A DNA stretch of 64,000 nucleotides from an uncultured Actinomycetota bacterium. Its GTDB lineage: Bacteria > Actinomycetota > Actinomycetes > JACCUZ01. Each line of letters starts with the position of its first letter. Positions within the stretch are counted from its first letter, which is position 1. Below are positions 15,729 to 43,136 of this stretch, piece by piece. The translations under genes and the position numbers were made by a program. The notes beneath the pieces were generated by a model. That model made no database searches. It was not told the DNA's origin and saw only the letters and a list, made by a program, of their open reading frames with translations. The stretch covers positions 2,319-66,318 of the forward strand of contig CAWJWE010000008.1 of NCBI GenBank assembly GCA_963846525.1. Direction: 5' to 3'.

Positions 15729-16614
15729 TAGATCGAGACCTTCCGGTAGCGGAGCAGCAGGGCGCCGAAGCAGGCCGCGACGACCAGGACGGTGGCGGCG
15801 ACGAACACCAGCGCCGCCGAGCGCGCCCGGGCGGCTCGGCCTGCAGCACCTCTCGGCGCCGAGCACCGAGGACATGCACGCCGTGGACCAGGGTGAACGG
15901 CGAGAACAGCCCGGCGTACCCGGCGAAGGTGTCCGCGCCCTCCTCGACCGCGATCGCCTGCACGGCGCCCTGGACCCCGGCCAGCACGGCCAGCACCGCG
16001 ATGATGGCCGCGACCCCGAGGCCGCGGCGCGGCGTGAACGCGGCGATGACCAGGCCGATGCCGGCGAGCACCAGTGCGACGAGCAGCGCGCCGACCAGCG
16101 ACCGCAGGTAGTCGGGCACCTGCTCGTCCGAGCGGCAGCTTCGGCCAGCAGCGCGCCGACGAACATGATCGTCAGCGGCAGCGGCCAGCAGCACGAACAG
16201 CGCCGAGGCCATCGCGGCGTACTTGGCCAGGACGTAGTCGACGCGCTCCAGCGGCCGGGAGAAGTACAGCGACACGACCCGGAACCGCAGGTCGCGCGAC
16301 ACGCTCGCCGGCGCCTGGCCCGCGACGTAGATCATCACCACAGGCTGCACGTTGAGGACGTAGGAGGTGTAGTCGCCGGGCAGCTCGTCGGCGTTGGTCA
16401 CGGTCGCGATGACCACGATGATGACCGCGGGCAGGCAGATCGCGGCGAGCAGCAGCATCGGCATGACCTTGGACTTGGCGGACCGGCCCAGGCCGTAGGC
16501 GCCCTTCGCGCTCTCCAGGAACAGCGCGCGCGCGATGTAGCGGCGGCCCGGCCGCGGGCCGTCGTAGTGCCGGTAGCCGAGGTCGTGGATGACCCCCTGG
16601 TCCGGTCGTCGCCA

Positions 16615-27097: not shown

Positions 27098-28693
27098 CTA
27101 GGGCATCCGCTCGTAGGCCGGGATGGTGAGGAAGTCCTCGAAGTCCTCGGACAGCGCCATCTCGGTGAACAGTCCGCGCGCGTCCTCCCACCGTCCGTTC
27201 GCGAAGGCGTCGTCGCCTACTTTCGAGCGGATGGCTCCGACCTCCTCCTCGATCAGCCGCTCCACCAGCTCGCGGGTGACGACCTCGCCGTTGTCCAGCC
27301 GGATGTCATTGTGCAGCCACTGCCATACCTGTGACCGGGAGATCTCGGCGGTCGCGGCGTCCTCCATCATGTTGTTGATCCCGACGGCGCCCGAGCCGCG
27401 CAGCCAGGCCTCGAGGTACTGCACGCCGACGCTGATGTTCGACCGCAGCCCGCCCTCGGTGACCGCGCCGGGTGTGCTCTTCACGTCGAGCAGCTGCTCG
27501 GCGCTCACCTGCACGTCGTCCCGGGTCCGGTCGACCTGGTGGGGGCGGTTGCCGAGCACCGCGTCGAACACCTCGGTGCACAGCGGCACCATCGCCGGGT
27601 GGGCCACCCAGGACCCGTCGAAGCCGTCGCCGGCCTCACGGGTCTTGTCGTCGCGCACCTTCTCGAAGGCGGCCTTGTTGGTCTCCTCGTCCTTGCTCGG
27701 GATGAACGCTGCCATGCCGCCGATCGCGTGCGCGCCGCGTTTGTGGCAGGTGCGCACCAGCAGCTCGGTGTAGGCCCGCATGAACGGGACGGTCATCGTG
27801 ACCGCGTTGCGGTCCGGGAGCAGGAAGTCCTCGCCGCGGGTCCGGAACTTCTTGATGACCGAGAACATGTAGTCCCAGCGCCCGGCGTTCAGGCCGGCCG
27901 AGTGGTCGCGCAGCTCGTAGAGGATCTCCTCCATCTCGAAGGCGGCCGGGTAGGTCTCGATGAGCACGGTGGCCCGGATCGTGCCTTGCGGGATGCCCAG
28001 CGCGTCCTGCGCGTGGACGAAGACGTCGTTCCACAGCCGGGCCTCGAGGTGCGACTCCATCTTCGGCAGGTAGAAGTAGGGCCCGAGCCCGCCCGCGATC
28101 TGCTTCTGCGCGCAGTGGAAGAAGTAGAGGCCGAAGTCGGTGAGGCTGCCGGAGGTCCGCTCGCCGTCGACCAGGATGTGCTTCTCGGGCAGGTGCCAGC
28201 CGCGCGGCCGGACCACGATGGTGGCGACGTCCTCGTTCAGCGCGTAGGACTTGCCCTCCGGCGAGCTGAAGTCGATCCGCCGGTCGATCGCGTCCCGCAG
28301 GTTGAGCTGTCCCTCGACCAGGTTCTCCCACAGCGGGGTGTTGGCGTCCTCGAGGTCGGCCAGCCAGACCCGGGCACCGGAGTTGAGCGCGTTGATGGTC
28401 ATCTTGCGGTCGGTCGGCCCGGTGATCTCGGCCCGCCGGTCGACCAGCCCGGGAGCCGCCTCGGCGACCCGCCAGCCGTCGTCCTCGCGGACGTCCTTGG
28501 TCTCGCTGAGGAAGTCCAGCATCCCGCCGGCGGCCAGCTCGGCGTAGCGCTGGTCCCGCAGGGCGAGCAGCTCCCGGCGGCGCGCGTCGAAGCGGCGGTG
28601 CAGGTCGGCGAGGAACGCGAGCGCCTTGTCGGTCAGCACCTCGTCGTACCGGTCCTTCATCGGTCCGTCGATCTGGACCCTGCTGTCGGTCAT
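27098..28693 (-). CDS. aceB: malate synthase A
   Basis: Intact, 531 aa. [60 protein letters not shown]. Confidence 0.95.
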
Positions 28694-29892
28694 GCTGCTC
28701 CTTCCGGTTGCAGGCTCGACCCGGTGGGGAGGGCGTGGAACGCCCGGGCGGCGAGCTCGCTCAGCAACGGCCCGGCGCGAACCATGGCCTGCGCGACGTC
28801 GGGCTCGAGGTCGAGCAGCGCATGGCTGCCGACGATCCCGAGATCGAAGAGCCGGGCCCGGTCGGCGGCGTCCAGGTCGACCCGCCCGGCCAGCACCACG
28901 ACCGGCACCGCCGCGGCGCGGGCCCGGCGTGCGACGCCCACCGGCGCCTTGCCGGCCAGCGACTGGTGGTCGAAGGACCCCTCGCCGGTGACCACCAGGT
29001 CGGCGCCGGCCAGGGCCTGGTCGAAGCCGACGAGGTCGAGCAGCAGCTCGATGCCCGGAGTGAGGTGGGCACCGAGGAAGGCCACCGCACCCGCCCCGAC
29101 GCCCCCCGCCGCGCCCGCGCCCGGGATGCGCGCGACGTCGAGGCCGTGGTCGCGGTGCAGCAGCTGGGCCAGGCGGGCCAGCCCGGCGTCGAGCACGGTG
29201 ACGTCAGCGGCGGAGGCGCCCTTCTGCGGTGCGTAGACCGCGGCGGCCCCGGTCGGGCCGGTCAACGGGTTGTCGACGTCGCAGGCGACCACGACCTCCG
29301 TGCCGGCGAGCCGGGCGTCCAGGCGGGTGGTGTCGATCCGGGCCAGCCCGGTCAGCGCCGCGCCGCCGGCAGCCAGCGGACGGTCCTTCCCGTCCAGCAG
29401 GCGGACGCCGAGGGCCGCGGCCATCCCGGTGCCGCCGTCGGTGGTCGCGCTGCCGCCGATGCCGAGGACCAGCCGTTCGACGCCCTCGTCCAGCGCCGCG
29501 GCGATCAGCTCGCCGGTGCCGTAGGTGCCGGCGTTGCGCGGGTCCGTCGTCCCACCGGGCAGCAGCGTCAGCCCGGACGCCGCCGCGAGCTCCACCACCG
29601 CGGTGAGCGGCCCGGCTCCCTCGGGCGACAGGGCGAACGCCGCGCGGACCGGCGCGCCGGTCGGGCCGACCACCGTGCGTTCGCGGCGCCGCCAACCGGC
29701 GGCCAGCAGGATCTCCACAGTGCCCTCGCCGCCGTCGGCCACCGGGTGCCGGCGGACCTCGAGCGCGACCCCGGAGCTCGCGGCCGCGGAGCGCAGGCCG
29801 GTCTCGACCGCCGCCGCCACCTCGTGCGCAGGGAGGCTCCCCTTGAACGAGTCGGGGGCGACGACCACGGTCAGCCGCGACGCTGCGGTCAC
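28690..29892 (-). CDS. glxK: glycerate kinase
   Basis: Intact. [55 protein letters not shown]. The stop overlaps the aceB start (ATGA). Confidence 0.9.
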
Positions 29893-30039
29893 ACCCGTCC
29901 TCCCGCATGTGGAGGTCTCTCCTGCTGCGCGACCCTAGGGAGCAGGTCGTTGCCCGGTCAAGGTCGGTTGATCCGCGTTTGCGTTGGCGCCCCAGGGGTC
30001 GAGGAAGGGGCGTACGGTGACCCGGTGACCAGTGCCTCG

Positions 30040-30974
30040 ATGGTCGACCATATCGGCGGTTTCTCGCACGAGGCATTTCTCTACGCCTCGCTGCCCGAGT
30101 TCCTCGACGAGGTCTGCGGCTTCCTCCGGGAGGGCATCGAGCGCGACGAGGCGGTGCTGGTCGCCACCGTAGGTGAGCGGCTCGCCGCCCTGCGGAAGCT
30201 GTTCGACGGGGAGCCCGACGTGCAGATCGTCGACATGGTCGAGGTGGGGGCCAACCCGGCCCGGATCATCCCGGTGTGGCGCGACTTCCTGGCGAGGAAC
30301 GTCGCCGCCGGGCGCGCGGTCCGCGGGCTCGGCGAGCCGATCTGGGCCGGTCGCAGCGAGGCCGAGCTGGCCGAGTGCCACCAGCACGAGTCGCTTCTCA
30401 ACCTGGCGTTCGCGGGCGGCCCGGCCTGGCGGCTGCTCTGCCCGTACGACGTCACCGCGCTGCCGGGCGAGGTCGTCGAGGAGGCGCGGGCCAACCACCC
30501 GCTGGTCCTGGACGCCGGGACCTGGTCGTCCAGCGACCGCTTCCGGGCGGAGCGGCCGCACCGGGCGCTGCGGCACCGGCCGCTGCCGCCGCCGAGCGAG
30601 CCGCCGGTCGAGCTGGCCTTCGGCTCCGGCGAGCTGGCCGCGGTCCGCCGGCTGGTCGAGAGCGCCTGTGCCGCGCACGATGTGCCGTCCGCCGCGGCCC
30701 AGGACCTGGTGCTGTGCGTCGACGAGATCGCGGCGAACAGCCTGATGCACGGCGGCGGGGCCGGGGTGCTGCGGATCTGGCGCGAGCCCGCGACGCTGGT
30801 CTGCGAGGTGTCCGATTCGGGCAACATCGCCGACCCGCTGATCGGCCGCGAGAGCCCCTCGGTGGACCGGACGGGTGGCCGCGGGGTGTGGCTGGCCAAC
30901 CAGCTCTGCGACCTGGTGCAGATCCGGTCCGGCGCAGCGGGACGGTCGTCCGGCTGCACGCCCGCCTCGCCTGA
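30040..30974 (+). pseudogene. MEDS domain + HATPase_c regulatory protein (RsbA-type anti-sigma regulatory factor); 1 frameshift near ~30935
   Basis: N-terminus FSHEAFLYASLPEFLDEVCGFLREGIERDEAVLVA (MEDS-like). C-terminus VDEIAANSLMHGGG, VSDSG, GGRGVWLANQLCDLVQIRS. The expected end GTVVRLHARLA* lies in the frame of ORF 30276..30974. Confidence 0.75.
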
Positions 30975-31026
30975 GCCGGCTGGTTCGAGCGTCGTTGCCC
31001 GCGAGGCGTGAGTGTGCGCGTGGGAC

Positions 31027-31183
31027 TCAGCGCCGTCGCCGGTACGTCCACCACTGGCCGGTGCCGCAGGACGGGCACGGCGGCAGGCGCTGGGTCGAGG
31101 TCACCTGGAGCTCGTAGTCACAGCTGGGGCAATGGTAGGTGCCGGACGAGACGTCACTGCCGGCGGCGGACGGGGTCGGCCAT
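31027..31183 (-). pseudogene. small zinc-ribbon protein (~52 aa); 1 frameshift near the 5' end
   Basis: AGGAG RBS and ATG 31183 (MADPV). After a 1-nt shift it reads SAAGSDVSSGTYHCPSCDYELQVTSTQRLPPCPSCGTGQWWTYRRRR*, with two CxxC pairs. Not in the ORF track because of the shift. Confidence 0.4.
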
Positions 31184-31295
31184 CTGGTGCTCCTGCGTCG
31201 GGGCGAGCGGGCGGTATCCTCGGCCAGCGCGCCGTAACGTCTTCGATCATGCTCGCAGGCATGCCGGGTTCCTGACAGCCGGTGCGGGGCGGTGC

Positions 31296-32209
31296 ATGTT
31301 CGACTCCCACCGAGGGAAGGGGACGGCCGGAGTGGAGTTCCTCGCGCCGAGCACGTGGGCCGACGCGCTGGCCGCGCGCAGCGAGCACCCCGGCGCGGTG
31401 CCGATCGCGGGTGGCACCGACGTGATGGTCGAGCTCAACTTCGACCGGCACCGGCCGGACGTCCTGATCGACCTCACCCGGGTCCCCGAGCTGGGCGAGT
31501 GGTCCCGCAGCGACGACGGCGGGATCCGGCTCGGCGCCGGCGTGACCTTCGCCCGGGTGATGACCGAGCTGGCCGAGCACGGCTCCCGGGCTGGCGATGG
31601 CGTCCCGGACCGTCGGCTCGCCGCAGATCCGGGTGCGCGGCACGGTCGGCGGCAACCTGGGCTCGGCCTCCCCGGCCGGCGACGCGCACCCGGTGCTGCT
31701 CGCGATCGACGCCGTCGTCGAGGTCGAGTCGGTGCGCGGGGTCGCGGCAGGTCCCGGTCGCGGACTTCTTCACCGGCGTGAAGAAGAGCGCGCTGGAGCC
31801 GGACGAGCTGATCTCTGCGGTGCTGCTGCCGCCGCTGGCCGGCCCCCAGCAGTTCGCCAAGATCGGCACCCGCAACGCGATGGTGATCGCCGTGACGTCG
31901 TTCGGGCTCGCGCTGCATCCCGAGCGGCAGGCGGTCGGCGCGGCGATCGGCTCGGCCGCCCCGACGCCGCGGCACGCGCGGACTGCCGAGCTGTTCCTCG
32001 CGGCGGCGCTGGCCGAGGACGGGCTGTGGGAGTCGCGGGCCGAGGTCCCCGACGCCGTCGCGACGCGGTTCGGCGACCTGGTCGCGGCTGACGCGTCACC
32101 GATCGACGACGTGCGCGGCACCGCGGCGTACCGGCGGCACGCCCTCTCGGTGCTGGCCCGGCGCACGCTGGGCTGGGCCTGGCAGGACTACCGGCGAGAG
32201 GCGGCCTGA
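31296..32209 (+). pseudogene. xanthine dehydrogenase family FAD-binding subunit; 2 frameshifts
   Basis: Spliced from the frames of ORFs 31008..31781 (PIAGGTDVMVELNF), 31597..32091 (MASRTVGSPQIRVRGTVGGNLGSASPAGD) and 31292..32209 (FAKIGTRNAMVIAV, DDVRGTAAYRRH). Confidence 0.85.
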
Positions 32210-32211
32210 GG

Positions 32212-32686
32212 ATGCGGGTCGAGCTCACGGTGAACGGCGAGCGCCGGCAGGCGGACGACGTGTGGGAGGGCGAGAGCCTGCTCTACCTGCTGCGTGAACG
32301 GCTCGGGCTGCCGGGCTCGAAGAACGCCTGCGAGCAGGGCGAGTGCGGGTCGTGCTCGGTCTACCTCGACGGCGAGGTCGTGTGCGCCTGCCTGGTGGCG
32401 GCCGGCCAGGCCGAGGGCCGCGACGTCGTCACGGTCGAGGGGCTCGCCGACGACGACGCGGCCGGGCTGCACCCGGTGCAGACCGCGTTCCTGGAGACCG
32501 GGGCCGTGCAGTGCGGCTTCTGCACGCCCGGGCCTGGTGGTCGCGGTGCACGACCTGCTGCAGCGGGTGCCGGCCCCGGACGACGACACGGTGCGCGAGG
32601 CGCTCGCCGGGAACCTGTGCCGCTGCACCGGCTACGAGAAGATCCTCGACGCCGTGCGGCTGGCGGCCGACCGGATGCGGGCGTGA
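32212..32686 (+). pseudogene. xanthine dehydrogenase family (2Fe-2S)-binding subunit; 1 frameshift near ~32530
   Basis: CEQGECGSCSV and QCGFCTPG, then in ORF 32294..32686 GNLCRCTGYEKI. Confidence 0.9.
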
Positions 32687-34056
32687 GCGACGTGCTCGTG
32701 ATCGAGGGCGCGACGGTCTGCACCGTGGACGCCGCGGGTACCGAGCACCCGGCCGGGCACGTCGTGGTCGAGGGCAACCGGATCAGCGCGGTCGGTGCCG
32801 GGCCGGCACCGGAGGAGGTACGCCGGGCGGCGGACCGCGTCCTCGACGCGACCGGCTGCCTGCTCACGCCAGGCCTGGTCAACACCCACCAGCACCTCTA
32901 CCAGTGGGCGACCCGCGGGCTGGCCGTCGACGCGACGCTGTTCGAGTGGCTCACCGAGCTCTACCCGGTGTGGGCCGGCATCGACGAGGAGGTCGTGCGG
33001 GCCGCGTCGGCTGCGGCGCTCGGCTGGCTGGCACGCACCGGCTGCACGACGAGCACCGACCACCACTACGTGTTCCCGGCCGGCGGCGGTGACCTGCTCG
33101 CGGCCGAGATCGGCGCAGCGGCGGCGGTGGGGCTGCGCTTCCACCCGACCCGCGGGTCGATGGACCTCGGCGCCAGCCAGGGCGGGTTGCCGCCCGACTC
33201 GGTGGTCGAGGACCTGGACGCCGTCCTGGACGCGACCGAGTCGGCGATCACCCGGTTCCACGACCCGTCGTACGACTCGATGCTGCGGGTGGCGGTGGCG
33301 CCCTGCTCGCCGTTCTCGGTGACCGCGAAGCTGATGACCGAGGCGGCCGACCTGGCCCGCCGGCACGGCGTGCGGCTGCACACCCACCTGGCCGAGACCG
33401 TCGACGAGGAGACGTTCTGCGCGCGAACGGTTCGGCGCGACCCCCACCGAGTACGTCGACTCGCTGGGCTGGCTCGGTCCGGACGTCTGGATGGCCCATG
33501 CCGTGCACCTCGACGACGCGGCCGTGGCCCGGTTCGGCGCCACCGGCACCGGCGTCGCGCACTGCCCGTCGAGCAACGCCCGGCTCGGCGCCGGCATCGC
33601 CCGCACCCGGGACCTGGTCGACGCCGGCGTCCCGGTCGGGCTCGGGGTCGACGGTGCGGCGTCCAACGAGGCCGGCTCGCTGCTTGGAGGAGCTGCGGCA
33701 CGCGGCGTTGTTCGCCCGGGCCCGCGGCGGGCCGACCGCGCTCTCGGTGCGCGAGGCGCTGCGGCTGGCGACGTACGGCGGCGCCCAGGTGCTCGGCCGG
33801 GCCGACGAGATCGGGTCGATCGAGGTCGGCAAGCTCGCCGACCTCGCCGCTGTGGCGGCTCGACACGCTGCCGCACGCGGGCATCGCCGACCCGGTCGCG
33901 GCGCTAGCCCTCGGCTCGGCGCCGCCGCTCGAGCTGCTGCTGGTCGACGGTCGCGCGGTGGTGGAGCAGGACCGGCTGGTGACGGTCGACGAGGAGGAGC
34001 TGGCGCGGGACGCGGCGTCGGCGTCCCGGCGGCTGCTCGAGAGGAGCTCCCGATGA
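32683..34056 (+). pseudogene. amidohydrolase (guanine / 8-oxoguanine deaminase-like); at least 3 frameshifts
   Basis: GTG 32683 overlaps the Fe-S subunit stop (GTGA). LTPGLVNTHQHLYQ metal-binding HxH, RLHTHLAET, MAHAVHLDD, VAHCPSSNARLG, GLGVDGAASN spread over three frames. Confidence 0.8.
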
Positions 34057-36342
34057 CGGCACCCGTCAGCACCCCGGTGCGCACCGACGGCGGCGTCGGC
34101 ACCGACGCGGCCCGGCCGGACGGCACCCTGAAGGTCACCGGCGAGTTCGCCTACGGCAGCGACCTGTGGGCCGACGAGATGCTCTGGGGCGTCACCCTGC
34201 GCAGCCCGTACCCGGCCGCCCGGATCAGGTCCATCGACCTCGGGCCGGCGCTGGCCGTGCCCGGCGTCTATGCCGTGCTCACAGCCGACGACGTCCCCGG
34301 CGACAAGCGGTACGGGCTGGAGTTCCAGGACCAGCCGGTGCTGGCGATGGACGTCGTGCGCTACCAGGGCGAGCCGGTCGCGCTGGTCGCGGCCGAGCAC
34401 CCGGAGACGGCCCGGCGGGCCGCCGCGCGGATCGTCGTCGACTACGAGGAGCTCGAGCCGGTCACCGACGCCCGGGTCGCGCTGGGGCACGCGGCCCGCG
34501 AGGTGCACCCGGAGCCGACGCCGGTCGTGGAGCGCAGCCGGGAGGCGGCGCCGCTGCACCCGCACGGCAACCTGATCCGGCACCTGAAGATCCGCAAGGG
34601 CGGCCGCGGACGCCACCGCGGACGTCGTGGTCGAGGGCGACTACGAGGTCGGCATGCAGGACCAGGCGTTCCTCGGCCCGGAGTCCGGTCTCGCGGTGCC
34701 GGCCGAGGACGGTGGCGTCGACCTGTACGTCGCCACCCAGTGGCTGCACGTCGACCAGCAGCAGATCTGCGGCGCCCTCGGCCTGCCACCCGAGAAGGTG
34801 CGCCTCACCCTCGCCGGTGTCGGCGGGGCGTTCGGCGGCCGCGAGGACCTCTCGATGCACGTGCACGCCTGCCTGCTCGCGATGCACACCGGCAAGCCGG
34901 TGAAGATGTCGTACAACCGCGAGGAGTCGTTCTTCGGTCACGTGCACCGGCACCCGGCCCGGCTGCACTACGAGCACGGGTTCACCCGGGCCGGTGACCT
35001 GGTCTTCGTCCGCGCCACGATCTGGCTCGACGGCGGGGCCTACGCATCCAGCAGCGCGGCCGTCGTCGGCAACGCCGGGCTGATGGGCATCGGCCCCTAC
35101 GTCGTGCCGAACGTGCACATGGACTGCTACGGCGCCTACACGAACAACCCGCCGTGTGGCGCGATGCGTGGCTTCGGCGCGGTCCAGGCGGCGTTCGCCT
35201 ACGAGTCGCAGATGGACAAGGGAGCGGCCGCGCTCGGCATCGACCCGGTCGAGCTGCGCTGCCGCAACGCCATGGAGGAAGGCTCGATCGCGCCGACCGG
35301 GCAGGTGGTCGACAGCCCCGCACCGGTGGCCGACCTGCTCCGCCGGCTGGAGGCGATGCCGCTGCCGCCGGACCGGGTCGGCGAGGACCTTCGCCAGCTG
35401 CCCGGAGGGGTGGCGAACTCCACCCACGGCGAGGGCGTACGCCGGGGCATCGGCTACGCGGTGGCGTACAAGAACATCGGGTTCTCCGAGGGCTTCGACG
35501 ACTACTCGACCGCCCGGGTACGGCTCGAGGTGACGGCGGGCGAGCCGGTGGTCACCGTGCACACCGCGGCGGCCGAGGTGGGGCAGGGCCTGGTCACCGT
35601 GCAGCAGCAGATCGCGCGCACCGAGCTGGGTGTCGAGCGGGTCGTGGTCGCACCTGCGGACACCGCGGTGGGCAGCGGCGGATCGTCGTCGGCGTCCCGG
35701 CAGACCTACGTGACGGGTGGTGCAGTGCGCGAGGCGTGCCGGAGGGTGCGCGACCGGGTGCTCGCCCGCTCCGGGGTGTCGTCCTGGGACGAGGTCGACA
35801 CCGACACGCTGGTGGCCGCACTGGGGGGCGACGCGGTCGAGGAGACCGTCGAGTGGCGGCACCGGCCCACCGAGGCCGTCGACCCGTCCACCGGACAAGG
35901 CAACGCGCACGTGCAGTACGCGTTCGCCGCCCACCGCGCGGTCGTCGACGTGGACGTCGAGCTGGGCCTGGTCAAGGTCGTCGAGCTGGCGTGCACCCAG
36001 GACGTCGGCAAGGCGGTCAACCCGCAGGCGGTCGTCGGGCAGATCCACGGCGGCAGCGCGCAAGGGCTGGGGCTGGCGCTGATGGAGGAGGTCGTCGTCC
36101 AGGACGGCATCATCCGCAACCCGTCCTTCACCGACTACCTGATCCCGACCATCCTCGACATGCCGCCGATGACCGTGGAGGTCCTCGAGCTGCCGGACCC
36201 ACACGCGCCGTACGGGCTGCGCGGCGTCGGCGAGCCGCCCACCATCTCCTCGGGGCCGGCGGTGCTGTCCGCGGTCCGTGCGGCGACCGGGCAGTTCCTC
36301 AGCCGGGTGCCGATCCGACCCGAGCACATCTGCGGCACCTGA
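34053..36342 (+). pseudogene. xanthine dehydrogenase family molybdopterin-binding subunit; 1 frameshift near ~34610
   Basis: ATG 34053 overlaps the upstream stop (ATGA). [49 protein letters not shown]. Confidence 0.9.
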
Positions 36343-36352
36343 GTCACGCCGG

Positions 36353-37709
36353 ATGACCGACCTCGTGCTGCACGCCCCCCGTGCCGTGCTGCCAGCCGCG
36401 GCCGGGGAGCAAGCGGTGACCGTCACCGTCGTGGGCGGTCGGATCGTGGGCGTCGGGCCGCTGGACCGCTCGGTCACCGGCCGACCGAACGGCGAGGTGG
36501 TCGAGCTCGGCGACGACGTCGTCCTGCTGCCCGGGCTGGTCGACACCCACGTGCACGTGAACGAGCCCGGCCGCACCGAGTGGGAGGGCTTCGCCTCGGC
36601 GACCCGCGCCGCGGCGGCCGGTGGCGTGACGACGATCGTCGACATGCCGCTGAACAGCCTGCCGCCGACGCTGGACCCCGAGGCGCTGGCGGTCAAGCGG
36701 GCGGCGGCCGAGGGCAAGTGCTTGGTGGACGTCGGCTTCTGGGGCGGCGCCGTGCCCGGCAACCTCGGCCGGCTGGGCGCGCTGCTCGACGCCGGGGTGA
36801 TGGGCGTCAAGTGCTTCCTGCCCGACTCCGGGGTCGAGGAGTTCCCGGCGTTGTCGTCGGCCGGATTGCTCGCCGCGGCCGAGGAGGTGGCGGCGGCCGA
36901 CGGACTGCTGCTCGTGCACGCCGAGGACCCCGGCGTCCTGTCCGGGGCGCCGGCGGCAGCCGGCCCGGCGTACCGGACGTTTCTCGCGTCGCGCCCGCAC
37001 AGCGCCGAGGACCGCGCGATCGACGCCGTCATCGACGCGGCCAGGCGGACCGGGGCGCGGCTGCACGTCGTGCACCTCTCGAGCGCCGCGGCCCTGCCGG
37101 CGCTGGCGGCCGCCAAGGCCGACGGTGTGCGGGTGACGGTCGAGACCTGCCCGCACTACCTGGTGCTGCGCGCCGAGGACGTGCCGGACGGGGCGACGTC
37201 GTTCAAGTGCTGCCCGCCGGTGCGCGACGAGGCCAACCGGGAAGCGCTCTGGGCCGGCCTGGCCGACGGCACCATCGACCTCGTCGTCAGCGACCACTCG
37301 CCGTGCACCGCCGAGCTCAAGCACCTCGACACCGGCGACTTCGGCACCGCCTGGGGCGGCATCTCCTCGCTGCAGCTCGGGCTGCCCGCTGGTGTGGACC
37401 GAGGCGCGCCGGCGCGGGCACTCGCCGGCCGACGTGGTGCGCTGGATGTCGTCAGGACCGGCCGGGCTGGTGGGTCTCACCAGGAAGGGCGGGATCAGGG
37501 CCGGGGCGGCGGCCGACCTCGTCGCGTTCGACCCGGATGCCGAGCAGGTGGTCGACCCGTCGCGGCTGCACCACCGCAACGCGGTGTCGCCGTACGCCGG
37601 TGCGCGGCTCACCGGCGTGGTGCGCGGGACGTGGTTGGCTGGGGCGCCGGTCGGCGCGGACCGGCCGGGTCCGGCGACCGGACGGCTGCTGTCGAGAGGG
37701 GAGGCGTGA
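36353..37709 (+). pseudogene. allB: allantoinase; 1 frameshift near ~37390
   Basis: [58 protein letters not shown]. The C-terminus is in ORF 37392..37709. Confidence 0.9.
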
Positions 37710-38747
37710 TGGCCCAGGAGGAGGCGACCGGCCAGGACCCGCTGGCCCTGCCGGACCTCGCGGTGCGGACCTTCGGCGGCGCCGTGGTGTGGGCCAACGA
37801 CGAGCTGTTCGCCGGGCGGGAGAACCTGATCAACCCCGGACCTGCCGCGTTCACGCCGCGGACGTTCGGTGCGAAGGGTCAGGTCTACGACGGCTGGGAG
37901 ACCCGGCGGCGACGCGAGCCCGGCCACGACGAGGCCATCGTGCGGCTCGGTGCGCCCGGTGTGGTGCGCGCCGTGGTCGTCGACACCAGCCACTTCACCG
38001 GCAACTTCCCGAGCGAGGCGTCGGTCGAGGGGCTGGCCGTCGACGGGCAACCGGCCGTGGCCGCTCTGCGCGAGGCCGAGTGGACCACGCTGGTCGAGCG
38101 CTCGCCGCTCCAGGGCGACACCGCGAACGTCTTCGCCGTCTCGTCGGCGAGACGGTGGACCCACCTGCGTCTCACCATCCATCCGGACGGCGGCGTGGCC
38201 CGGCTGCGGGTGCACGGCCAGGTCGTCGCCGACCCGCGGCCGATCGAGGCGCTCGGCACCATCGACCTCGCCGCGCTCGACCTCGGCGGCCGGGTCACCG
38301 GCTGCAGCAACCTGTTCTACGGGTCGCCGGACCGGCTGATCGCGCCCGGGCTGGCCCGGTCGATGGGCGAGGGCTGGGAGACCGCGCGGCGGCGCGACGA
38401 CGGCAACGACTGGGTCGAGGTGCGGCTGGCCGCGCGCGGCTCGGTGCGCGTCGTCGAGCTGGACACGACATGGTTCCTGGGGAACGCGCCCGGGGCGGCC
38501 GCCCTCTCGGCGTACGACGGCGACGGCGACCGCGCCGATCCTGGGTCGTGGTTCCCGCTGCTGGAACGCACCGCGCTGCAGCCGGACACCCGGCACCGTT
38601 TCGTGCTCGCCGAGCCGTCGGCGCCGGCCAGCCACGTGCGCCTCGACGTCTACCCGGACGGCGGGATGGCCCGGCTGCGGCTCTGGGGTCGGCCCGACCG
38701 ACGACGGGCTGGCCGCGCTGCGGGACCGGTGGGACGCGACCGGATGA
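37709..38747 (+). pseudogene. alc: allantoicase; 1 frameshift near ~38695
   Basis: ATG 37709 overlaps the allB stop. Two repeats: [10 protein letters not shown]...[10 protein letters not shown]...[13 protein letters not shown] and EGWETARRR...[10 protein letters not shown]...[13 protein letters not shown]. The reconstructed tail [15 protein letters not shown] ends at 38747. Confidence 0.85.
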
Positions 38748-39984
38748 TCCTGCCCGACGACGTCCTGCGCGAGCTGGACGACCTGCTCGCCCCTGCCGAT
38801 GCGGCGCTGGCCGCGGGCTGGCCCGGAGAGCCGGCCGGTCGGCAGCCGGTGCACACGCTGTACCTGCCGGCCGACCGGGCCGCCGCCGACGTCGTGACCC
38901 GGGCCGGCGCCGACGCGCTGGACGCGGTGGCCGCCGAGGACGCCGGGTCGATGGCGCGGATCACCGGGCTGGCCGCCGCGGTGGTCGACGAGGTGTGGCC
39001 GCGGGTGCTGGCCAAGCTGGCGGGCGAGCCGGTCGAGGACCTTCGGCTGGACCTCGAGGACGGCTACGGCGCGCGACCTGACGACGAGGAGGACCGGCAT
39101 GCGCGGCTCGCCGGCGAGGTCCTCGCCGGGCTGGGCGGTGCGGGCGCGCCGTTCGTCAGCGGGGTCCGCATCAAGTCGCTGGAGGCGCCGACCCGGCGGC
39201 GCGGCGTGCGCTCGCTGGACCTGGTGCTCGGGGCGTTCGGCGGCGCGCCGCCGGCCGGCTTCGTCGTCACCCTGCCGAAGGTCACCTCGGTCGACCAGGT
39301 GCGGGCGATGGTGCTGCTCTGCGAGCGGCTCGAGGCCGCGCACGGCCTGCCGCCCTCGTCGCTGCGCTTCGAGGTGCAGGTCGAGACGCCGCAGGCGGTG
39401 CTCGGTGCCGACGGGACGGCGACCGTCGCGCGCGCCGTGCACGCAGCCGGCGGGCGGTGCACCGGCCTGCACTACGGCACGTACGACTACAGCGCGTCGC
39501 TCGGTGTCGCCGCCGCGCACCAGTCGATGGAGCACCCGGTCGCCGACCACGCGAAGGCGGTGATGCAGGTGGCGGCGGCGCAGACCGGCGTGCGGGTGAG
39601 CGACGGGTCGACCAACGTGCTGCCGCTCGGTGACCGGGCGCACGTCGAGGCGGCCTGGGCGCTGCACGCGCGACTGGTGCGGCGGTCGCTGGAGCGCGGC
39701 ATCTACCAGGGCTGGGACCTGCACCCCGCGCAGCTGCCGACCCGCTACCTCGCGACGTTCGCGTTCTACCGGGAGCGGGCTGGCCGCCGCGGTCGCGCGG
39801 CTGCGCGGCTACCTGGACCGGCAGTCGGGTGGGGTGCTCGACGAGCCGGCGACGGCGTTCGCGCTGGCTGGGTTCCTTCTGCGCGGCCTCGACTGCGGGG
39901 CACTGGACGCCGACGAGGTCGCGGCGGCCGGCGGCCCGGACGGCGACACGCTCCGGCGGCTGGCCCGGCGCGACGGGGCGCAGC
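38744..39984 (+). pseudogene. HpcH/HpaI aldolase - citrate lyase beta (CitE)-like TIM-barrel protein, function unknown; 1 frameshift near ~39775, 3' boundary undefined
   Basis: ATG 38744 in an ATGA overlap with the alc stop. [56 protein letters not shown]. It continues in the frame of ORF 39630..40034. No stop codon precedes the uraD motifs. Confidence 0.6.
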
Positions 39985-39986
39985 CG

Positions 39987-40466
39987 TGGCTCGACACATT
40001 GCCAGCGGGCGAGCTCCGGTCGAGGCGCTGCTGACGGTGTGCGCCTCACCCGCGCTGGGCCGACCTGGTCGCCGCCGCCGCGCCCTACCGCTCTGCCGAC
40101 GGGCTGCTCGCTGCCGCCGAGCGTGCTCTCGGCGCTCTCGCCGAGCAGGACGTCGACGATGCCCTGGCCGGCCACCCCCGGATCGGTGAGCGGTCCGCCC
40201 ACGCGGCCTCGCAGCGCGAGCAGGCCGGTGTCGGCGACGCCGTGAAGGACGCGCTGGCCGAGGGGAACCGCGAGTACGAGAACCGGTTCGGCCACGTCTA
40301 CCTGGTCTGCGCCAGTGGTCGCAGCGGCGAGGAGCTGCTCGACGTGCTGCGCTCCCGGCTCGGCAACGACCCGGCGCACGAGCGCACCGTCGTGCGTACC
40401 GAGCTCGGCAGCATCAACCGGCTGCGGCTGCAGCGTCTGCTGGACGAAGGAGGACCGACCCGATGA
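39987..40466 (+). pseudogene. uraD: 2-oxo-4-hydroxy-4-carboxy-5-ureidoimidazoline (OHCU) decarboxylase; 1-2 frameshifts, start undefined
   Basis: LDTLPAGE / [11 protein letters not shown] / [12 protein letters not shown] in alternating frames, then GHPRIGER...SQREQAG...NREYENRFGHVYLVCASGRSGEELL. The stop overlaps the uraH start. Confidence 0.8.
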
Positions 40467-40784
40467 GCGTGGTGACCACCCACGTGCTGGACTGCCGTGA
40501 CCGGCCTGCCGGCCCGCGGCGTCGCGGTGCGGATCGAGGGGCGCGACCTGATGGTCGAGGCACGCACCGACGACGACGGCCGGGTCCGCGAGCTCGGCCC
40601 GGACCGGCTGGACCCCGGCACCTACCGGGTGGTCTTCGCGACCGGCGACTGGTTCGCCGCGCAAGGCCGCGAGACCTTCTACCCGGAGGTCGTCGTGAGC
40701 TTCACCGTCGACGACCCGGACGGTCACCTGCATGTGCCGCTGCTGCTGTCGCCGTACGCCTACTCGACCTACCGAGGGAGCTGA
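40463..40784 (+). pseudogene. uraH: 5-hydroxyisourate hydrolase (transthyretin-like); 1 frameshift near ~40493
   Basis: MSVVTTHVLD, then in ORF 40497..40784 VTGLPARGVAVRI...YRVVFATGDWF...HLHVPLLLSPYAYSTYRGS (canonical C-terminal YRGS). Confidence 0.85.
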
Positions 40785-40787
40785 GCC

Positions 40788-41684
40788 GTGGGCATCGTGC
40801 TCGGGGACAACCGCTACGGCAAGGCGGAGACGCGGCTGGTGCGGGTGGTGCGGGACACGGCGCGGCACGAGATCCGCGACCTGACCGTGTCGACGTCCCT
40901 CCGTGGCGACTTCACCGCCGCGCACGTCGAGGGCGACCAGCTCGACATCCTGCCGACGGACACCCAGAAGAACACCGTCTACGCGTTCGCGAAGGAGCGA
41001 GGGGTCGGCGCGACGGAGGAGTTCGCCCGCGAGCTGGCCCGGCACTTCGTCGACGACGTCGGGCCGGTCACCTCGGCGCAGGTGGTGGTCGAGGAGCAGG
41101 GCTGGGAACGCGCGTCGGTCGACGGGCGGCCGCACGACCACACCTTCGTGCGCACCGGCGCCGAGACCCGCACGGCGGTGGTCACGGCATACGACGGCGG
41201 CGAGCATGTGGTGTCCGGGCTGACCGGCCTGGTGCTGCTGAAGTCGACCGGCTCGGAGTTCACCGGGTTCCTGGTCGACGACCTCACCACCCTGCCGCCG
41301 ACCACCGACCGGGTCCTCGCTACCGCGCTGACCGCGCGCTGGCGATGGGCCGCGGTCCCCACTGACGGCTACGACGCGGCGTACGCCGAGGTCCGGGCGC
41401 TGCTCGTCTCGCGGTTCGGCAGCCTGCACAGCCTGGCCCTGCAGCAGACGCTGTGGGAGATGGGCCGGACGGTCCTCGAGGCCCGGGCCGACATCGCCGA
41501 GCTGCGGATGTCGGCGCCGAACAAGCACCACTACCTCGTCGACCTCGCGCCGTTCGGCCTGGAGAACCCGGGCGAGGTCTTCAACGCCGGCGACCGGCCC
41601 TACGGGCTGATCGAGGTCGCAGTCGGCCGGGACGAGGAAGCGCCGCAGCCGGAGGCCTGGCGCGACGTCCCCGGGTTCGTCTGA
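40788..41684 (+). CDS. uox: urate oxidase (uricase)
   Basis: Intact, 298 aa. NRYGKAETRLVRV, PTDTQKNTVYAFAKE, LLKSTGSEFTGF, LQQTLWEM, SAPNKHH. Confidence 0.92.
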   Translation: MGIVLGDNRYGKAETRLVRVVRDTARHEIRDLTVSTSLRGDFTAAHVEGDQLDILPTDTQKNTVYAFAKERGVGATEEFARELARHFVDDVGPVTSAQVVVEEQGWERASVDGRPHDHTFVRTGAETRTAVVTAYDGGEHVVSGLTGLVLLKSTGSEFTGFLVDDLTTLPPTTDRVLATALTARWRWAAVPTDGYDAAYAEVRALLVSRFGSLHSLALQQTLWEMGRTVLEARADIAELRMSAPNKHHYLVDLAPFGLENPGEVFNAGDRPYGLIEVAVGRDEEAPQPEAWRDVPGFV

Positions 41685-42238
41685 TGGCCCTGACGCAGTA
41701 CAACACCGCTACCAGCATCGACGGGTTCATCGCCGACGAGAACGGCTCGCTGGACTGGCTGTTCGAGGTGCCGGCCGACGGCAGGTCGCGCTTCGCCGGC
41801 TTCATGGCCGAGGTCGGCGCCATGGCGATGGGCTCGACGACCTACCAGTGGGTCCTCGACCACGAGCGGGTGCTCGAGGAGCCGGCCAAGTGGACCGGCT
41901 GGTACGGCGACCGCCCGTCCTGGGTGTTCACCCACCGCGACCTGCCCGCCGTGCCCGGCGCGGACATCAGCTTCGTGCAGGGCGATGTCCGGCCGGTGCA
42001 CGCCGAGATGGTCCAGGCCGCGGGCGGTCGCAACATCTGGCTGGTCGGCGGCGGCGACCTGGTCGGCCAGTTCGCCGACCACGGCCTGCTGGACGAGATC
42101 ATCCTCGGGGTCGCGCCGGTGACCCTCGGCGGCGGTGCGCCGCTGCTGCCGCGTCGCCTGACCGGGACGGCGCTGGCGCTGGCCGGCGTAGAGGTGGTCG
42201 ACGACGCGTTCGTCGAGCTCCGCTACCGCGTCGGGTAG
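41684..42238 (+). CDS. dihydrofolate reductase family protein (RibD C-terminal domain-like)
   Basis: ATG 41684 shares 1 nt with the uricase stop. TSIDGFIADENGSLDWL, MGSTTYQW, NIWLVGGGDLVGQF, LDEIILGVAPVTLGGG. Confidence 0.85.
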   Translation: MALTQYNTATSIDGFIADENGSLDWLFEVPADGRSRFAGFMAEVGAMAMGSTTYQWVLDHERVLEEPAKWTGWYGDRPSWVFTHRDLPAVPGADISFVQGDVRPVHAEMVQAAGGRNIWLVGGGDLVGQFADHGLLDEIILGVAPVTLGGGAPLLPRRLTGTALALAGVEVVDDAFVELRYRVG

Positions 42239-42248
42239 CGGGGTCGGC

Positions 42249-43136
42249 TCAATCGGCGGTCCCGCTGCGGCGCGCGACGTCGATGATGCTGCTCTCGTTC
42301 GCGTCGCCGAGGCCCATGGCCAGCAGCCGGTCGAGCCCGTCCAGGGCTGCCCGGCCGAACGGTGCGGGCACGCCGAGGGTGTCGGCCAGCCGGACGCCGT
42401 ACTCGGCGTCCTTGCGGCGCAGCCGACCGGAGAACACGACGTCGTGCTCGTGGTCGCCGTCGGCCATCCGGCGGCTGTTGCGCACCACCTGCGGGCTGGC
42501 CGCCTGCCCGGCGGCGATCGCCCGGGCCACCTGGTCGAGGTCGAGACCGGCGCGTTCGGCGAGCGCCATGCCTTCTGCCGCGGACGCGATCTGCACGGCG
42601 CCCATCAGGTTGATGATCAGCTTGTAGACCGTGCCGGCACCGACCGGGCCGAAGTGCAGCTGGTCGTCGGACAGCGCCAGCAGCAGTGGCCTGGCGTCCT
42701 CGAGGTCGGCGGCGTCGGCCCCTATGAGCAAGGTCAGGCGGCCGGCCGCGGCAGCGTCCGGCAGGCCGGTCACCGGGCAGTCGAGGTAGCGCAGCCCACG
42801 GTCGTGCACCGCCGGCGACAGCTCGCGCACCCACCCGTGCGACAACGTCGAGCACTCGATCGCCAAGGCGCCGGGCGCGGGGTCGGCCGCGAGCACGCCG
42901 TCGTTGCCCTGCCACACCGCCCGGGACGCCTGGTCGTCGCTCACCATGACGAACACCGCGGACGCGCCGTCCGCCGCATCCCGGGGACTCGTCGCGAGCC
43001 GGGCGCCGCGCTCGACCAGTGGCGCCGCCTTCTCCCGCGTGCGGTTGTAGACGGTCAGCTCGTGCCCGGACTCCAGGAGGCGACCGGCCATGCCGCTGCC
43101 CATCCGACCGAGACCGATGAACGCGAGAGCTGCCAT
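42249..43136 (-). CDS. NAD(P)-dependent beta-hydroxyacid dehydrogenase (tartronate semialdehyde / 3-hydroxyisobutyrate reductase-like)
   Basis: Intact. FIGLGRMGSGMAGRL Rossmann motif, LDCPVTG, GAGTVYKLIINLM, KDAEYG. Confidence 0.85.
   Translation of the reverse strand: MAALAFIGLGRMGSGMAGRLLESGHELTVYNRTREKAAPLVERGARLATSPRDAADGASAVFVMVSDDQASRAVWQGNDGVLAADPAPGALAIECSTLSHGWVRELSPAVHDRGLRYLDCPVTGLPDAAAAGRLTLLIGADAADLEDARPLLLALSDDQLHFGPVGAGTVYKLIINLMGAVQIASAAEGMALAERAGLDLDQVARAIAAGQAASPQVVRNSRRMADGDHEHDVVFSGRLRRKDAEYGVRLADTLGVPAPFGRAALDGLDRLLAMGLGDANESSIIDVARRSGTAD

Follow-up and report, generated by a model that had tools for sequence, protein, structure and literature searches.

The pathway that degrades purines to glyoxylate is described in textbooks, yet in many soil bacteria (Actinomycetota and, by the labels of metagenome-assembled genomes (MAGs), Bacteroidota and Acidobacteriota) its last step lacks a recognised gene. 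Which protein could carry out this step is the question raised by a stretch of 64,000 nucleotides from an uncultured Actinomycetota bacterium (GenBank assembly GCA_963846525.1, contig CAWJWE010000008.1), hereafter called the window. As judged from sequence comparison, the window has genes for all steps between xanthine and ureidoglycolate and also for the consumption of glyoxylate, and none was recognised for the conversion of ureidoglycolate to glyoxylate and urea. It was found by tblastn that E. coli AllA, AllC, AllE, AllD, Gcl and Hyi had no match in the 64-kb window; with E values up to 10, AllA gave only short chance segments there, which is a weak test. An earlier, sequence-only reading had likewise seen neither AllA nor an amidohydrolase for ureidoglycolate at 31–43 kb, and indeed no M20 amidohydrolase was found in the window. 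That reading suggested that a gene starting at position 38744 might supply the missing step, or another step in the handling of glyoxylate. The present analysis indicates that this gene encodes a fusion of a DUF6986 domain with 2-oxo-4-hydroxy-4-carboxy-5-ureidoimidazoline (OHCU) decarboxylase. With moderate confidence, the DUF6986 domain is proposed as a candidate Mg2+-dependent (S)-ureidoglycolate urea-lyase (EC 4.3.2.3) that would replace AllA.

One open reading frame encodes a DUF6986–OHCU decarboxylase fusion

The open reading frame (ORF) extends from 38744 to 40466 on the + strand and comprises 572 codons after four inserted bases are discounted. Its ATG at 38744 lies in the string ggATGAtc and overlaps the TGA of the allantoicase gene. 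This start had been proposed in the sequence-only reading and was confirmed: the ATGA was read, codon-position G+C content showed a single coding frame on the + strand from 38744 to ∼39775 in a window of 73% G+C, and all five motifs quoted earlier were present in this frame. The end of the gene had to be revised. It had been placed at 39984, after about 415 codons, but there was no stop at that position; after 39776 the frame stayed open past 39984 and ran into OHCU decarboxylase sequence. The C-terminus reads LLDEGGPTR and the true stop is at 40464–40466, where it overlaps the ATG of the 5-hydroxyisourate (HIU) hydrolase gene in a second ATGA.

Two domains were recognised in the read-through protein. 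The DUF6986 domain (PF22484; 38744–39995, + strand), a triosephosphate isomerase (TIM) barrel of the malate synthase/CitE superfamily and the candidate ureidoglycolate lyase, is followed by the OHCU decarboxylase (UraD) domain (PF09349; 39999–40463, + strand). The latter was matched with E 8e-39 and 134 bits against a cut-off of 24, contained the conserved His-Pro-x-Ile-Gly motif as HPRIGE, and was 81% identical by tblastn to the UraD part of L002, a relative on a 1.25-Mb contig. The closest relative, P0001, is a single intact ORF of 572 amino acids (aa) with both domains and 96% identity; by tblastn it spanned 38744–40463 of the window, split over two frames. The gene order of L002 is identical to that of the window and its 572-aa fusion is unbroken, and P0002 also contains an intact fusion. 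PF22484 and PF09349 were found in one ORF in 61 of the 120 best matches to the read-through protein. The sequence-only reading had placed the gene between those for allantoicase and a separate UraD. Because the closest relatives are single intact two-domain ORFs, this 'uraD' is the C-terminal domain of the same protein, which the earlier gene model had missed. The locus encodes one bifunctional protein of ∼572 aa, which is translationally coupled to allantoicase on the 5′ side and to HIU hydrolase on the 3′ side. The C-terminal domain would convert OHCU to (S)-allantoin.

Origin of the inserted bases

Three insertions break the frame of the window copy. An inserted c at 39776 (+ strand) causes a +1 frameshift within the DUF6986 domain after FYRE, where related contigs in X2, X3 and X4 are one base shorter. 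Compared with P0001, an inserted tc at 40020–40021 (+ strand, +2) at the start of the UraD domain makes an in-frame TGA at 40033–40035, and one inserted base at 40048–40052 (+ strand, +1) is followed by recovery of the frame before RWADLV. Contigs in X2 and X4 have two bases fewer after 40019, and contigs in X1, X2 and X4 have one base fewer at 40048. In these soil-metagenome short-read contigs of related populations, exactly the inserted bases are missing; the allantoicase gene is also shorter by one base near 38690, and the HIU hydrolase gene by one at 40492–40493.

Three frame-breaking insertions within 1.7 kb, one of them producing a stop, could suggest that the four inserted bases are real and that the window copy is a decaying pseudogene. 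This was considered improbable. Small frame-breaking indels were observed in almost all of the genes located at 31–41 kb of the window: the xanthine dehydrogenase (xdh) flavin adenine dinucleotide (FAD) subunit is broken into 3 pieces, the iron-sulfur (FeS) subunit into 2, the amidohydrolase into 4 and allantoinase into 2, and all five indels resolved at base level were insertions. Moreover, the codon-position G+C bias persisted beyond every shift, each inserted base was missing from related populations of other runs, and P0004, the product of a related ENA assembly, showed similar frame errors. Since the related populations lack the insertions, the indels are cluster-wide and the G+C bias is intact, assembly error is the most likely source of the four inserted bases. 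The indels across 31000–41000 resemble a systematic assembly error, and ORF calls over the whole window need caution.

Family and predicted fold of DUF6986

The sequence-only reading had assigned the protein to the HpcH/HpaI–CitE–malyl-CoA lyase barrel from its motifs, and this was borne out by the Pfam scan, profile comparison and predicted fold. Within the N-terminal part of 414 residues, residues 16–408 matched DUF6986 (PF22484, model positions 2–405 of 408) with E 1.4e-163 and 545 bits against a cut-off of 27. HpcH_HpaI (PF03328) reached 33.6 bits against a cut-off of 25, only over residues 174–285 (model positions 87–187 of 221). The score of MS_TIM-barrel (PF01274) was 16.9 bits, below the cut-off of 26.4, and this model was matched by some distant DUF6986 members. 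The Pfam scan of the read-through protein detected neither MS_N nor MS_C (PF20656 and PF20659), and gave no match to the AllA family (PF04115) for the DUF6986 protein. The NCBIfam malyl-CoA lyase model scored 33 bits against a cut-off of 500. The DUF6986 family comprised at least 592 clusters at 50% identity (E < 1e-30) and was present in at least 600 species genomes.

The matches to solved structures reported here were obtained with an alignment of diverse members; a PDB search with a profile of close homologues only gave nothing useful. By Foldseek and hidden Markov model (HMM) comparison, the nearest solved structures were 3qqw, 3r4i, malate synthases A, G and H, CitE and CLYBL. The AlphaFold 2 model of a stand-alone DUF6986 member (predicted local distance difference test (pLDDT) 83, predicted template modelling score (pTM) 0.83) exhibited an alpha/beta barrel to which further helices are added at either end, and this predicted structure was matched by Foldseek to 1z6k, 1sgj, 9nzb and 5vxc with a probability of 1.0. 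As the profile and fold matches are malate synthase, CitE, malyl-CoA lyase and CLYBL, the earlier superfamily assignment was right, and DUF6986 belongs within the CitE/HpcH/malate synthase barrel superfamily. The structure model of the fusion (pLDDT 81.6, pTM 0.65) showed no confident domain interface, so that there is no case for substrate channelling.

DUF6986 differs from each of its known relatives. Malate synthase A (AceB, PF01274, 3cuz) has a homologous barrel (hhalign probability 91.6%, E 8e-7; Foldseek E 4.5e-7) and shares the DFED, LPK, IET and DY motifs, but DUF6986 is ∼110 residues shorter and the N- and C-terminal domains of malate synthase were not detected in it. For CitE, malyl-CoA lyase and HpcH/HpaI (PF03328; 1z6k, 4l9y and 5vxc), the similarity was above the Pfam cut-off over the core, the Mg2+ ligands aligned and the predicted fold was similar, whereas the match was central only; DUF6986 has ∼100 extra N-terminal residues and another C-terminal helical region. 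The best HMM match was 3r4i ('citrate lyase'; E 2e-6, over almost the whole barrel and the C-terminal region) and the best Foldseek match was 3qqw (putative lyase Reut_B4148; E 3e-8). Both have DxEDG, TLPK, VET and IHPAQ-like motifs in common with DUF6986, but they are ∼18–19% identical, ∼300–340 aa long and outside DUF6986, and are structural-genomics entries without assigned function.

As for existing names, many non-actinobacterial members are called 'phosphoenolpyruvate kinase' by NCBI (e.g. P0297, P0300, P0307, P0327 and P0342), and the labels 'citrate lyase beta subunit' (JGI) and 'aldolase' (NCBI, for some members) are also in use. No published basis for the label 'phosphoenolpyruvate kinase' or 'citrate lyase beta subunit' was found for DUF6986; the former term was met only in unrelated uses.

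Conserved residues of the predicted active site

Conservation was scored over 44 diverse DUF6986 members; residue numbers follow P0109 (T. bispora), and those of malate synthase follow E. coli AceB. The invariant residues include D108, R110, D112, D115, R150, R161, R248, D258, D297 and R344, and E114, E220, E224, TLPK186–189, H253, W334, D335, H337 and D376 are at least 90% conserved. When DUF6986 was aligned with malate synthase A by hhalign, the DFED motif at 112–115, common to both, fell on DFED 117–120, R150 on Arg166 and W334 on Trp365, and E224 and D258 fell on the Mg2+ ligands Glu250 and Asp278. In the alignment with malyl-CoA lyase (4l9y), the same two residues corresponded to its Mg2+ ligands Glu141 and Asp168. 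Arg276 of malate synthase is lost in DUF6986, with Thr (T256) instead. The full-length alignment left the DEPAT motif of DUF6986 away from the EDAATAE motif of malate synthase. It is predicted from these residues that a site for Mg2+ and a 2-oxy acid is conserved in DUF6986.

Gene neighbourhoods in Actinomycetota

The best 80 species loci of at least 600 were inspected with 10-kb flanks; all 80 belong to Actinomycetota. Purine, allantoin or glyoxylate genes lay within 10 kb of DUF6986 in at least 33 of them. The common orders were allR(–), then aceB-DUF6986-AllE-like bicupin or hyi-glxR-gcl-glxK-allB-alc. Malate synthase A was encoded directly upstream of DUF6986 in 15 loci, and a malic enzyme gene was upstream in others. 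The AllE-like bicupin was found in 13 loci, directly downstream of DUF6986 in 8 of 9 clustered cases. Nearby genes in the linked loci were allB, alc, uox, hiuH, uraD, gcl, hyi, glxR and glxK, together with those for PucR, NCS1 and NCS2 permeases and hydantoin racemase. The order in Thermobispora was IclR(–), DUF6986 and, further on, uricase-glxK-allantoinase-allantoicase, with related arrangements in Pedococcus and M. goodii.

Several other features of these loci were observed. Thermobispora (L083, 11335–11938) and Pedococcus (L084, 12958–13467) have small genes for Thiamine_BP and HTH_22 between those for DUF6986 and uricase, joined into one gene in Pedococcus. At 16071–18005 of L084, a xanthine/uracil permease and an OHCU decarboxylase domain are united in a product of 644 aa, next to which lies a separate OHCU decarboxylase gene. 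M. goodii (L172, 7062–13989), and likewise L024 and L069, has genes for IclR, DUF6986, the AllE-like bicupin, hydantoin racemase, an NCS1 permease and allantoinase; neither allantoicase nor AllC was found within 8–10 kb in these three loci. MSMEG_5726 of M. smegmatis, a hypothetical protein of ∼405 aa encoded upstream of an 'allantoicase' and twofold induced in nitrogen limitation (PMC4617892), was considered as a DUF6986 member and dropped, because its membership could not be shown and the gene order in M. goodii differs. The Streptomyces-type loci (e.g. L020, 8862–11257) have a LacI-type regulator and an M20 peptidase nearby.

Gene neighbourhoods in other phyla

A second branch of DUF6986, 36–40% identical to the actinobacterial proteins, was found in Bacteroidota, Ignavibacteria, Acidobacteriota, Bacteriovoracia and Sericytochromatia. 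On 4 of 6 long contigs it belonged to a compact operon of allantoinase-allantoicase-OHCU decarboxylase-HIU hydrolase-(uricase)-DUF6986. The operon form outside Actinomycetota was allB-alc-(uox or PuuD)-uraD-hiuH-DUF6986, so that the typical operon consisted solely of DUF6986 and the genes for the complete route between urate and ureidoglycolate. The MAGs that carried it bore the labels Bacteroidetes (L086), Pyrinomonadaceae (L087) and Bacteriovoracia (L089), and it was also present on many unlabelled metagenome contigs.

Eighty metagenome loci of this branch, with flanking sequence of varying length, were then counted. Purine genes were present in the flanks of 49, directly adjacent on the same strand in 45, and allantoicase was among them in 29. 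Genes for aceB, gcl, hyi, glxR and glxK were found beside DUF6986 in none of the 80 loci. One locus, L166, had the order allB-allC-allE-uraD-hiuH-DUF6986, that is, the AllC plus AllE route instead of allantoicase. In L101 (5713–7964) and L114 (5644–7921), DUF6986 was directly preceded by a gene for PuuD (the membrane urate oxidase Urate_ox_N) and one ORF in which OHCU decarboxylase and HIU hydrolase are fused, giving the order allB-alc-PuuD-[uraD-hiuH fusion]-DUF6986. Since DUF6986 is linked with allantoicase or with AllC plus AllE, and in the 80 metagenome loci never with aceB, gcl, hyi, glxR or glxK, it travels with the ureide pathway by either route to ureidoglycolate and is not tied to glyoxylate assimilation. 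An AllA-like gene was seen in none of the 80 metagenome loci, by tblastn with E. coli AllA only, which is a weak test on local DNA; and in the local DNA of the linked loci of both censuses neither an AllA-like gene nor an M20 amidohydrolase gene was found.

DUF6986 as a candidate ureidoglycolate lyase

The suggestion that the gene supplies the step from ureidoglycolate to glyoxylate gained support from the family assignment and from the neighbourhood census, and the evidence for it is circumstantial. A precedent exists in zebrafish, whose malate-synthase-like protein DrMSL was assayed with Mg2+ and is an (S)-ureidoglycolate lyase (Dembech et al., PNAS 2023, PMC10120013). This demonstrated that a malate synthase barrel can catalyse urea elimination. 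The glyoxylate site of malate synthase is kept in DrMSL except for Arg276Ile and Trp365Met, its acetyl-CoA site is not conserved, and according to the authors the DrMSL group contains eukaryotic sequences only (PMC10120013). DrMSL and DUF6986 share the barrel superfamily, the Mg2+- and glyoxylate-binding residues, the loss of Arg276 (Ile in DrMSL, Thr in DUF6986), the co-occurrence with allantoicase and uricase and, if the analogy holds, the reaction. They differ in that DrMSL is a true malate synthase family member of ∼560 aa with the architecture of that family, whereas DUF6986 is a separate bacterial family of ∼420 aa below the malate synthase Pfam cut-off; Trp365 is kept in DUF6986 as W334 and replaced by Met in DrMSL. 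AllA and DAL3 (PF04115) would have the same reaction and the same place in the pathway as DUF6986, after allantoicase or AllE, but AllA has a small, unrelated beta-barrel fold and no sequence similarity to DUF6986.

For the substrate and the chemistry, we infer the following course, for which malate synthase and malyl-CoA lyase serve as analogues. Ureidoglycolate would chelate, through its carboxylate and C2-hydroxyl, the Mg2+ held by E224 and D258, and R150 would polarise the C2 oxygen. An acid/base, probably D376, would take the hydroxyl proton or protonate the leaving ureido nitrogen; urea would then depart and leave glyoxylate behind. The glyoxylate carbonyl would be activated as in malate synthase, with urea in the place of the acetyl-CoA enolate, and the glyoxylate released could pass to the separate malate synthase A of the window. 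The retention of equivalents of malate synthase catalytic residues, tentative in the case of Asp447, makes it conceivable that DUF6986 also hands nascent glyoxylate on to acyl-CoA, which we regard as very unlikely.

Several observations weigh against a ureidoglycolate lyase. At least 38 of the 80 actinobacterial loci are of the Streptomyces type, with DUF6986 after etfB-etfA and no purine gene within 10 kb. Among the 80 metagenome loci, 31 had flanks without a purine gene, and this was still so for 18 of the 49 with at least 2 kb of upstream sequence. The census bore out linkage of homologues to ureide genes, in at least 33 of 80 actinobacterial and 49 of 80 other loci, but not the restriction to ureide clusters that the sequence-only reading had considered. 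The AllA search was made with the E. coli protein by tblastn on local DNA, and allA could lie elsewhere in these genomes. A literature search found no paper naming DUF6986 and no published function for it. Ureidoglycolate also decays spontaneously, and allantoicase has been reported to act on (R)-ureidoglycolate. Finally, when only the C-terminal parts were aligned, DEPAT/DDAAT (D376) paired with EDAATAE, which holds the catalytic Asp447, with a weak E of 0.04; since only this weak alignment pairs them, the equivalence of D376 and Asp447 is held to be tentative. DUF6986 may be capable of C–C chemistry, because the equivalents of Arg166, Trp365 and probably Asp447 are kept and malate synthase uses Arg166 and Asp447 on acetyl-CoA.

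The last point leads to the alternative that DUF6986 consumes glyoxylate, as a compact enzyme of the malate synthase, malyl-CoA lyase or aldolase kind, condensing it with an acyl-CoA or an oxo acid. Homology to malate synthase A, malyl-CoA lyase and CitE, conservation of the equivalents of Arg166, Glu250, Asp278, Trp365 and, tentatively, Asp447, and the position directly after aceB in 15 actinobacterial loci and after a malic enzyme gene in others are all consistent with it. Nevertheless, we consider it unlikely. A genuine, full-length AceB is encoded in the window (27104–28711, – strand, at the left edge of the cluster; 48% identical to E. coli AceB and 62–66% to actinobacterial AceB by tblastn), and AceB is also encoded directly upstream in those 15 loci, so that a second enzyme of malate synthase type would be redundant. 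In the 80 loci from other phyla, DUF6986 is accompanied by ureide genes, and none of aceB, gcl, hyi, glxR and glxK was found beside it; the UraD fusion binds it to the purine pathway. Moreover, Thr replaces Arg276, the N- and C-terminal malate synthase domains were not detected and the barrel model stayed at 16.9 bits against 26.4. A plain second malate synthase was rejected as the leading reading on account of the separate AceB, the ureide linkage, the loss of Arg276 and the missing malate synthase domains.

Action on another ureide was judged to be distinctly unlikely. DUF6986 might cleave allantoate or ureidoglycine, hydrolyse ureidoglycolate to ammonia and CO2, or racemise ureidoglycolate. 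Loci such as that of M. goodii (L172), with allantoinase, the AllE-like bicupin and DUF6986 and with no allantoicase or AllC found within 8–10 kb, leave more than one step for it to fill. But allantoicase, or AllC plus AllE, is already encoded in most linked loci, and the predicted site is the Mg2+-bound 2-oxy-acid site of the superfamily and not of the amidohydrolase type. A general, non-purine function, with ureide clustering incidental or confined to a subfamily, would suit the Streptomyces copies beside etfBA, the unrelated neighbours on the remaining 2 of the 6 long contigs (L085 and L088) and the unlinked third or so of the metagenome loci, but it is very improbable, given that the same operon linkage recurs in Actinomycetota, in the L086, L087 and L089 MAGs and on many unlabelled metagenome contigs, that half of the closest relatives (61/120) carry the in-frame UraD fusion, that repeated linkage plus fusion is hardly expected by chance, and that the literature gave no support for the 'phosphoenolpyruvate kinase' label.

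The purine cluster in the window

The order on the + strand was found to be MEDS/HATPase, xdh FAD, FeS, guanine deaminase-like amidohydrolase, xdh Mo, allantoinase, allantoicase, DUF6986::UraD, HIU hydrolase, uricase and RibD_C. The genes for the FAD, 2Fe-2S and molybdenum (Mo) subunits of xanthine dehydrogenase and for the amidohydrolase occupy 31332–36339 (+ strand); they were identified by Pfam and by tblastn, which gave several pieces per gene, and they contain many frameshifts. The frameshifted allantoinase gene (amidohydrolase; 36359–37700, + strand; Pfam Amidohydro_1 and tblastn) encodes a protein 38.6% identical to E. coli AllB and 58% identical to an acidobacterial allantoinase by tblastn. 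Allantoicase (37709–38747, + strand) matched Pfam Allantoicase with E 8e-89, was 87% identical to the alc product of L002 by tblastn, and contains one inserted base near 38690–38693. Downstream of the fusion lie HIU hydrolase (40463–40784, + strand; Pfam Transthyretin, E 1e-28), with an inserted t at 40493, and uricase (40788–41684, + strand; Pfam Uricase, E 1e-53).

On the flanks, a glycerate kinase gene (GlxK-like; 28942–29874, – strand; 47% identity to E. coli GlxK by tblastn) lies next to aceB on the left and a GlxR-like dehydrogenase gene (42249–43136, – strand) on the right. The glycerate branch looks incomplete in the window, because no gcl or hyi was found within 64 kb.

Three further genes were observed within the cluster. 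A protein with a sensory MEDS domain and with HATPase_c_2, a domain resembling anti-sigma-factor kinases, is encoded at 29950–31008 directly upstream of xdh, as in L002, and may be a regulator of the cluster. The guanine deaminase-like amidohydrolase gene (32683–34053) stands between those of the 2Fe-2S and Mo subunits of xdh, an order also seen in L002, Amycolatopsis and Prauserella. A gene for a RibD_C-domain protein, similar to dihydrofolate reductase, follows uricase at 41684–42232 and has the same place in L002.

Implications

The joining of purine-catabolism domains in one polypeptide is reminiscent of plant allantoin synthase (HIU hydrolase–OHCU decarboxylase), and a uraD-hiuH fusion of this kind also adjoins DUF6986 in L101 and L114. 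In contrast to allantoin synthase, DUF6986::UraD would join non-consecutive steps, the third and the sixth.

For eukaryotes, a ureidoglycolate lyase belonging to the malate synthase superfamily was already described in 2023. DUF6986 and the animal malate-synthase-like proteins are distinct families, which suggests separate recruitment. DUF6986 is a reasonably probable candidate for a third, independently recruited family of ureidoglycolate lyases, which in bacteria would correspond to the malate-synthase-like enzyme of animals. If this is correct, DUF6986 would replace AllA without being homologous to it, and the gap in purine breakdown would be closed in no fewer than 592 protein clusters (50% identity) and no fewer than 600 species genomes. 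MAGs and metagenome contigs from Bacteroidota, Acidobacteriota, Ignavibacteria and further phyla would likewise have the last step filled. The labels DUF6986, 'aldolase', 'citrate lyase beta subunit' and 'phosphoenolpyruvate kinase' would be corrected, and models of nitrogen recycling in soil improved. The malate synthase/CitE barrel would then have been recruited to eliminate urea not only in animals but also in bacteria.

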